Positions 12,068-12,229 of a stretch of DNA of 12,229 bases are shown one piece after another. This DNA comes from a virus (lineage: Duplodnaviria; Heunggongvirae; Uroviricota; Caudoviricetes). The stretch lies in the IMG/VR virus record IMGVR_UViG_2609459834_000004, one strand, 5' to 3'. The translations under genes were made by a program, and so were the position numbers. Each line of letters starts with the position of its first letter. Within the stretch, counting starts at the first letter, position 1. The notes under the pieces were generated by a model. That model made no database searches. It saw nothing but the letters and a program-made list of their open reading frames with translations, and was not told the DNA's origin.

Positions 12068-12229
12068 GGTAATGACTCCAACTTATTGATAGTGTTTTAT
12101 GTTCAGATAATGCCCGATGACTTTGTCATGCAGCTCCACCGATTTTGAGAACGACAGCGACTTCCGTCCCAGCCGTGCCAGGTGCTGCCTCAGATTCAGG
12201 TTATGCCGCTCAATTCGCTGCGTATATCG
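12068..12229 (-). mobile_element. IS1 insertion sequence, right end (terminal inverted repeat GGTAATGACTCCAACTTATTGAT...), continuing beyond the window
   Basis: From 12068 the sequence is the reverse complement of the canonical IS1 right end (...CACTATCAATAAGTTGGAGTCATTACC), recognised from memory. The element is oriented on the minus strand and only ~162 bp is in the window. Confidence 0.85.
12084..12229 (-). CDS. insB: IS1 transposase InsB, C-terminal fragment (partial at window edge)
   Basis: Minus-strand reading gives ...[48 protein letters not shown], stop TAA at 12086-12084 inside the IS1 terminal repeat. Confidence 0.7.

Follow-up and report, generated by a model that had tools for sequence, protein, structure and literature searches.

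The DNA analysed here, hereafter the window, is 12,229 bp long and comprises the entire contig JNPE01000053.1 (reversed) of draft assembly GCA_000703505.1, the proteins of which are labelled Escherichia coli. Both of its edges are contig ends. To judge from its sequence, the window is the mosaic late region of a temperate phage, with a lambdoid layout in which Q, holin, endolysin, and spanin genes are followed in the same direction by terminase, portal, protease, and capsid genes. Positions 1–7221, encoding the small and large terminase subunits, portal, S78 protease, HK97-type capsid, and head-tail proteins, are 97% identical to Shigella phage SfV, the genome end of which maps near 7221 and thus places cos between the HNH gene and the small terminase gene. 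Positions 8040–11520, encoding Bor/Iss, Rz, endolysin, holin, porin, and Q, are 98.9% identical to phage mEp332 and close to the qsr′ module of DLP12. The segment 11400–12067, which holds Q, 110 bp past the Q stop, and the ylcG remnant, is 98–99% identical to deposited phage genomes such as ev099, PhiR34_1, mEp332, and 434B. The lengths of the late genes equal those of the annotated intact homologues in strain NJS001, and the visible prophage shows no sign of being an old, decayed remnant. No RNA families were detected in the window at Rfam gathering thresholds. Coordinates of the features around Q are collected in Table 1.

Table 1. Features of the window from the lysis cassette to the IS1 end, with the basis of each assignment.
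Feature	Coordinates	Strand	Basis
Lysis cassette, all full length: holin 9435–9650, endolysin 8938–9435, Rz spanin 8480–8941	8480–9650	−	PF04971, PF00959, PF03245, full profile coverage
Intact porin gene of the prophage (NmpC/Lc type, 365 aa), flanked by Q and the lysis cassette	10223–11320	+	PF00267
Q (quuD type, 127 aa), intact	11510–11893	−	PF06530, E = 3.5e-53, profile 1–118 of 118
Intergenic leader from ylcG to Q; ribosome-binding site of Q, GGAG, 8 nt ahead of the ATG	11894–11978	−	Sequence and scan
ylcG remnant, end of codon 18 to codon 46 and stop	11979–12067	−	Mapping of annotated ylcG and frame translation
ATAAGCGCA, 9 bp expected to be duplicated beyond IS1 if the insertion is simple (predicted)	12059–12067		Sequence
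IS1A 3′ terminal 162 bp	12068–12229	−	Identity to IS1A copies and PF03400; cut by contig end
IS1 right terminal inverted repeat (IRR), GGTAATGACTCCAACTTATTGAT	12068–12090		Read from sequence
insB, last 48 codons and TAA stop (12083–12085)	12083–12229	−	Translation and Pfam match

Q has an unbroken reading frame whose product matches the antiterminator profile over its full length, and its DNA is 100% identical to that of genomes with annotated quuD (WP_001204791.1 in strain ST2350). Q is thus an intact late antiterminator of the QuuD type, for which antitermination at the late promoter/qut is predicted.

Several features of the remaining window are recorded as side observations. The porin gene is oriented opposite to the late genes, so late transcription must cross it antisense, and a terminator-like hairpin follows it on the plus strand (11459–11476). 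A Bor/Iss-type outer-membrane lipoprotein of 97 aa (PF06291; 8152–8448, plus strand) is encoded in the interval from Rz to the HNH gene, an arrangement shared with lambda and DLP12 relatives. The exact allele of the HNH endonuclease (7280–7630, minus strand), which lies beside the P27-type small terminase, occurs on two contigs only in the gene-position collection, the other carrier being an ENA metagenome scaffold, and the corresponding 90% cluster has 999 members. At the left edge the window cuts the tail-terminator gene (PF23840), and homology to strain NJS001 reaches the first base; the break there probably reflects branching between similar prophages and not an IS.

At the right edge, positions 12068–12229 match copies annotated as “IS1-like element IS1A family” in two other E. 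coli genomes (PSS-08-2 and UFZC01000004) at 162 of 162 bases, with 0 mismatches. The minus-strand translation of 12086–12229 reproduces the last 48 residues of InsB and aligns with positions 84–131 of the 131-position IS1 transposase profile PF03400 (E = 9e-25); the DDE transposase coding sequence (InsB/InsAB′) is thus present for the visible 48 codons, the remainder lying beyond the contig end. The insB TAA stop is 18 nt from the tip of the element. The 23-bp terminal repeat at this tip, GGTAATGACTCCAACTTATTGAT, is the same as in the annotated IS1A copies and corresponds to the IS1 right inverted repeat. The junction is a genuine IS1 3′ (IRR) end. Both insA and insB of the element are co-directional with Q, on the minus strand, and 175 bp separate the IS1 tip at 12068 from the Q ATG at 11893. 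The original prediction had placed an IS1 end at 12068–12229, about 175 bp upstream of Q, and both the identity of the element and the distance are borne out.

The visible part of IS1 amounts to 162 bp of a 768-bp element; the remaining 606 bp, as well as the target duplication, fall beyond the contig end. The sequence stops 162 bp into IS1 because the draft contig ends in a multicopy repeat that was unresolved by the short-read assembler, and the absence of the other IS1 end is therefore a matter of assembly, technical and not biological in origin. This agrees with the earlier caution that, with one IS1 end visible, neither the target duplication nor a larger rearrangement can be judged from this sequence, the window edge being the contig end. 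When a sequence under study is a complete draft contig, an IS end at its edge is a signature of repeat-induced assembly breakage, and the neighbourhood of such an end, here ylcG, should be compared with uninterrupted relatives before any regulatory reading is attempted.

Such a comparison, which had been suggested with the original prediction, shows what was displaced from the flank of Q. Uninterrupted relatives are 100% identical to the window up to 12068/12069 and then continue with the ylcG sequence gatgcccccagcgg instead of IS1, and in thousands of E. coli genomes the match runs unbroken from Q and ends at 12068/12069. The empty site in strain ST2350 has ggaaacgatataagcgca on one side of the breakpoint and gatgcccccagcggtggcg on the other, and the annotated ylcG of 46 codons crosses it; this gene (6480–6620 of the ST2350 locus) maps to 11979–12119 of the window, minus strand. 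IS1 thus enters ylcG after codon 17 of 46, and the start codon and first 17 codons have been displaced by the element. The region abutted by IS1 had been described as lying immediately upstream of Q, which is correct insofar as the element adjoins the Q flank; that flank is not a spacer, however, but the 3′ two thirds of ylcG, and the displaced sequence is the 5′ part of the same gene.

In place of the intact 46-codon ORF of the YlcG family (PF26818) between rusA and Q, codons 18–46 are left. Frame translation found no in-frame ATG, GTG, or TTG for this remnant upstream within IS1, and the RefSeq call over the junction, a 35-aa “YlcG family protein” (WP_032177314.1), starts at an ATA inside the IRR. 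This 35-aa product has no hmmscan match at E ≤ 0.001, yet the precomputed hits of the collection list PF26818. From these features we infer that ylcG, the gene between rusA and Q, has been knocked out by IS1.

The occupied site is rare. Of 5,426 complete E. coli genomes, 2,917 carry the empty site, taken as a 120-bp stretch of intact ylcG with the breakpoint at its centre; a 120-bp query spanning the occupied junction was covered by none (0/5,426). A search for the exact 39-nt junction pattern was likewise negative in GTDB-representative genomes, IMG/VR, and JGI metagenome contigs; the GTDB-representative and JGI metagenome collections do not include the source assembly itself. The junction ORF WP_032177314.1 is the sole member of its cluster and occurs on no contig but this one. 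The exact porin protein occurs in 10,467 blocks of the collection, and at the 10 places listed of these no IS1 is found in ylcG. The distribution points to a strain-specific event and not a conserved feature, and the transposition into ylcG is probably recent.

Three candidates for a second carrier of the junction were rejected: PSS-08-2 and strain 51489 have IS1 at another site, and the additional segment of Rosetta2(DE3), with about 80 mismatches over 162 bases, is something other than IS1.

Given the observed identity and orientation of the IS1 end, its breakpoint in ylcG, the intact state of Q and the late genes, and how rarely the occupied site is seen, the explanation that best accounts for the locus as a whole, and which we hold to be quite probable, is that IS1A inserted into ylcG and that the contig was broken within IS1, with the consequences for Q proposed below. 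A copy of IS1A would have transposed into ylcG of a lambdoid prophage in this E. coli isolate such that insA/insB read toward Q, and the prophage would combine a Q-porin-lysis module of the DLP12/mEp332 type with head genes of the SfV type.

Whether the insertion was simple concerns the side of the element that lies beyond the contig. A simple insertion, in which another contig carries on after a 9-bp duplication of ATAAGCGCA with the remainder of ylcG, rusA, and the nin/early region, is likely on prior grounds. In E. coli mutation-accumulation lines, 233 new IS1A insertions were recorded against 43 IS1A recombinational deletions (PMC5009759), and it is because insertions so outnumber deletions that the simple event is favoured. 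Target duplications of IS1 in these lines are 8–9 bp long (PMC5009759). The far junction of a simple insertion is predicted to read from the IS1 left end through ATAAGCGCA and GATGCCCCCAGCGG to rusA; in window plus orientation, the left end, terminating in TTGGCAGCATCACC, would be followed by ATAAGCGCA or TAAGCGCA and then by GATGCCCCCAGCGGTGGCGAAGAAG, which leads into the 5′ end of ylcG and rusA. The partner junction was not found in GTDB-representative and JGI metagenome contigs, among which the source assembly is not included, either as the IS1 left end followed by 6–12 nt and GATGCCCCCAGCGGTGGCG or as the left inverted repeat (IRL) followed by ATAAGCGCA and GATGCCCC.

The main alternative is that IS1 marks a rearrangement breakpoint, produced by an IS1-mediated adjacent deletion or by recombination or inversion between IS1 copies, so that the 5′ part of ylcG, rusA, nin, and possibly the whole early region are gone from upstream of Q. 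In favour of it, the contig stops with a single IS1 end in view, and there is a precedent in E. coli PSS-08-2, where an IS1A some 1 kb upstream of the same Q has a truncated ninX on one side and xis/int immediately on the other, the replication and immunity region having been lost in association with IS1. IS1A also produced 43 deletions per 233 insertions, and inversions are invisible to data of that kind (PMC5009759). The same figures nevertheless put insertions ahead of recombination events by about 5 to 1 (PMC5009759), and the visible prophage, which runs from Q through lysis, terminase, portal, and capsid to head-tail genes without decay, fits a young event. A rearrangement is the less likely course; if it did occur, Q and the late operon would be physically cut off from pR, and the prophage would be a truly cryptic remnant.

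If instead the insertion is simple, its effect depends on how Q is transcribed. Q closes a co-directional gene string in relatives (cro/cII-O-P-ren-nin-rusA-ylcG-Q), and a consensus scan of the Q strand from the IS1 tip to the Q ATG returned no promoter-like or terminator-like sites. With Q last in this string and no promoter-like site in its leader, Q is most likely dependent on upstream read-through; the assumption behind the original prediction, that Q is reached by read-through from pR, is in keeping with this gene order, which makes pR the expected source. IS1 is classically polar in both orientations, owing to Rho-dependent termination in its poorly translated interior, and N-modified polymerase classically reads through polar IS insertions. 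A literature search, the reach of which excluded the classical older papers, returned nothing directly on IS1 polarity and N antitermination or on ylcG/quuD. An N-type antiterminator is encoded by at least one relative with the same Q module (L010, PF11438) and also by phage 434B, a phage 434 isolate (OL657227.1) that carries a 1.2-kb IS5 between the same Q and the holin and endolysin genes. The 434B record was submitted as a complete phage genome, which suggests that an antiterminated transcript may tolerate an IS along its course, provided that 434B propagates.

For the window, polarity of IS1 through Rho-dependent termination in the poorly translated insB would lower the uninduced, unmodified transcription reaching Q, and on induction N-modified polymerase from pR should still cross the 768-bp element, if N bypass operates here as assumed from the relatives. 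Our best guess is that Q expression is lowered or delayed rather than abolished, as long as the early region remains. The earlier proposal that IS1 may lock the prophage in a cryptic state is weakened by the N-type antiterminator of relatives, by the IS5 that follows Q in 434B, and by the full length of all late genes. Were IS1 truly to block Q induction, the locus would be one more case of IS-driven prophage inactivation, which is well documented.

It is also conceivable, though improbable, that IS1 itself supplies Q transcription, either through read-through from insAB or from a hybrid promoter formed by a −35-like hexamer in the IRR and a −10-like hexamer in ylcG, giving low constitutive, induction-independent Q. 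Transcripts of insAB would run toward Q, and the stretch from the insB stop to the Q ATG holds no terminator-like site. Against this, insAB is driven by a weak promoter that is subject to autorepression. A relaxed scan yielded a lone junction-spanning candidate, TTGGAG in the IRR and TATCGT in ylcG separated by 16 nt, which agrees with the consensus at 7 of 12 positions and at 3 of 6 in the −35 hexamer and falls below the scan threshold. A further candidate site inside ylcG, scoring 9/12 with a poor 15-nt spacer, is resident and was not created by IS1, because uninterrupted relatives have it too. In reporter work, IS1 termini alone gave no signal and a half-promoter depended on the adjacent 20 bp, and the terminus tested was the 5′ one, whereas it is the 3′ terminus that faces Q here (PMC5526668). 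Selection would, moreover, act against constitutive Q, since it would turn on holin and endolysin. The weak outward IS1 promoter of the original prediction thus has a possible counterpart in the poor hybrid candidate, but IS1 itself brings only a context-dependent half-promoter (PMC5526668).

An extension of this idea, that IS1 acts as a domestication switch by which Q is insulated from SOS-induced early transcription and fed a trickle of IS1-derived transcription, is very improbable; it would imply low, induction-independent expression of the late module from a silenced prophage, with effects such as lysis-cassette-dependent vesicle or biofilm formation. An assembly artefact, in which IS1 reads were chimerically joined to ylcG reads at the contig end, is the least credible of the alternatives: although the junction sits at the extreme end of a short-read draft contig and is found nowhere else (complete E. 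coli, GTDB-representative, IMG/VR, and JGI metagenome collections), the break coincides exactly with the start of the IS1 inverted repeat, as real transposition demands, 162 bp of perfect IS1 lie beyond it, and contigs that end within a multicopy IS are a normal outcome of short-read assembly.

Insertion of IS1A into ylcG, the preferred reading, requires only components that are already known, namely IS1A, ylcG, a QuuD-type Q, the DLP12/mEp332 lysis module, and SfV-type head genes. It is an ordinary IS insertion, with little weight beyond strain-level annotation.

Other IS elements lie close to the same Q in related loci. In PSS-08-2 (5183–6118 of that locus) IS1A is next to truncated ninX and the early region is gone; in strain 51489 (4016–4713) IS1 is immediately downstream of Q, in the place of the porin; and in UFZC01000004 (8774–9471) IS1 lies between porin and holin. 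The Q-lysis module is repeatedly hit by IS1. Phage 434B, deposited as “mutant phage 434B”, carries a DLP12-type segment at 2208–5917, ylcG(3′)-Q-nmpC::IS5-S-R-Rz, with a crossover annotated inside ylcG at codons 34–39, and ylcG is thus a recombination joint in a laboratory phage.

Compared with these and other known systems, the visible part of the element, IRR and insB C-terminus included, is without any difference from the IS1A of E. coli, and the insertion site in ylcG alone is new. Gene order is the same as in the qsr′ region of DLP12 in E. coli K-12 (rusA-ylcG-quuD-nmpC-essD-rrrD-rzpD), and DNA identity to DLP12 and to phages mEp332, ev099, and 434B is 98–100% over ylcG(3′)-Q-porin-S-R-Rz-bor. 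Past bor, the window continues into HNH, terminase, and HK97-like head genes of the SfV type and not into Nu1/A of the lambda type. Relative to 434B, which has the DLP12-type module with IS5 in nmpC, the window has an intact porin gene and a ylcG split by IS1. PSS-08-2, strain 51489, and UFZC01000004 resemble the window in having IS1A or IS1 within 1–2 kb of the same Q, but none of them has it in ylcG. A further parallel is offered by the rus-1 IS2 and rus-2 IS10 insertions upstream of rusA in DLP12, which, as reportedly described by Mahdi and co-workers in 1996, activate rusA. Like the IS1 of the window, these elements lie in the nin-Q segment of a DLP12-type prophage and are able to alter expression of the next gene; they differ in having strong outward promoters and in lying upstream of rusA, whereas the IS1 described here brings only a half-promoter and is located downstream of rusA, inside ylcG.
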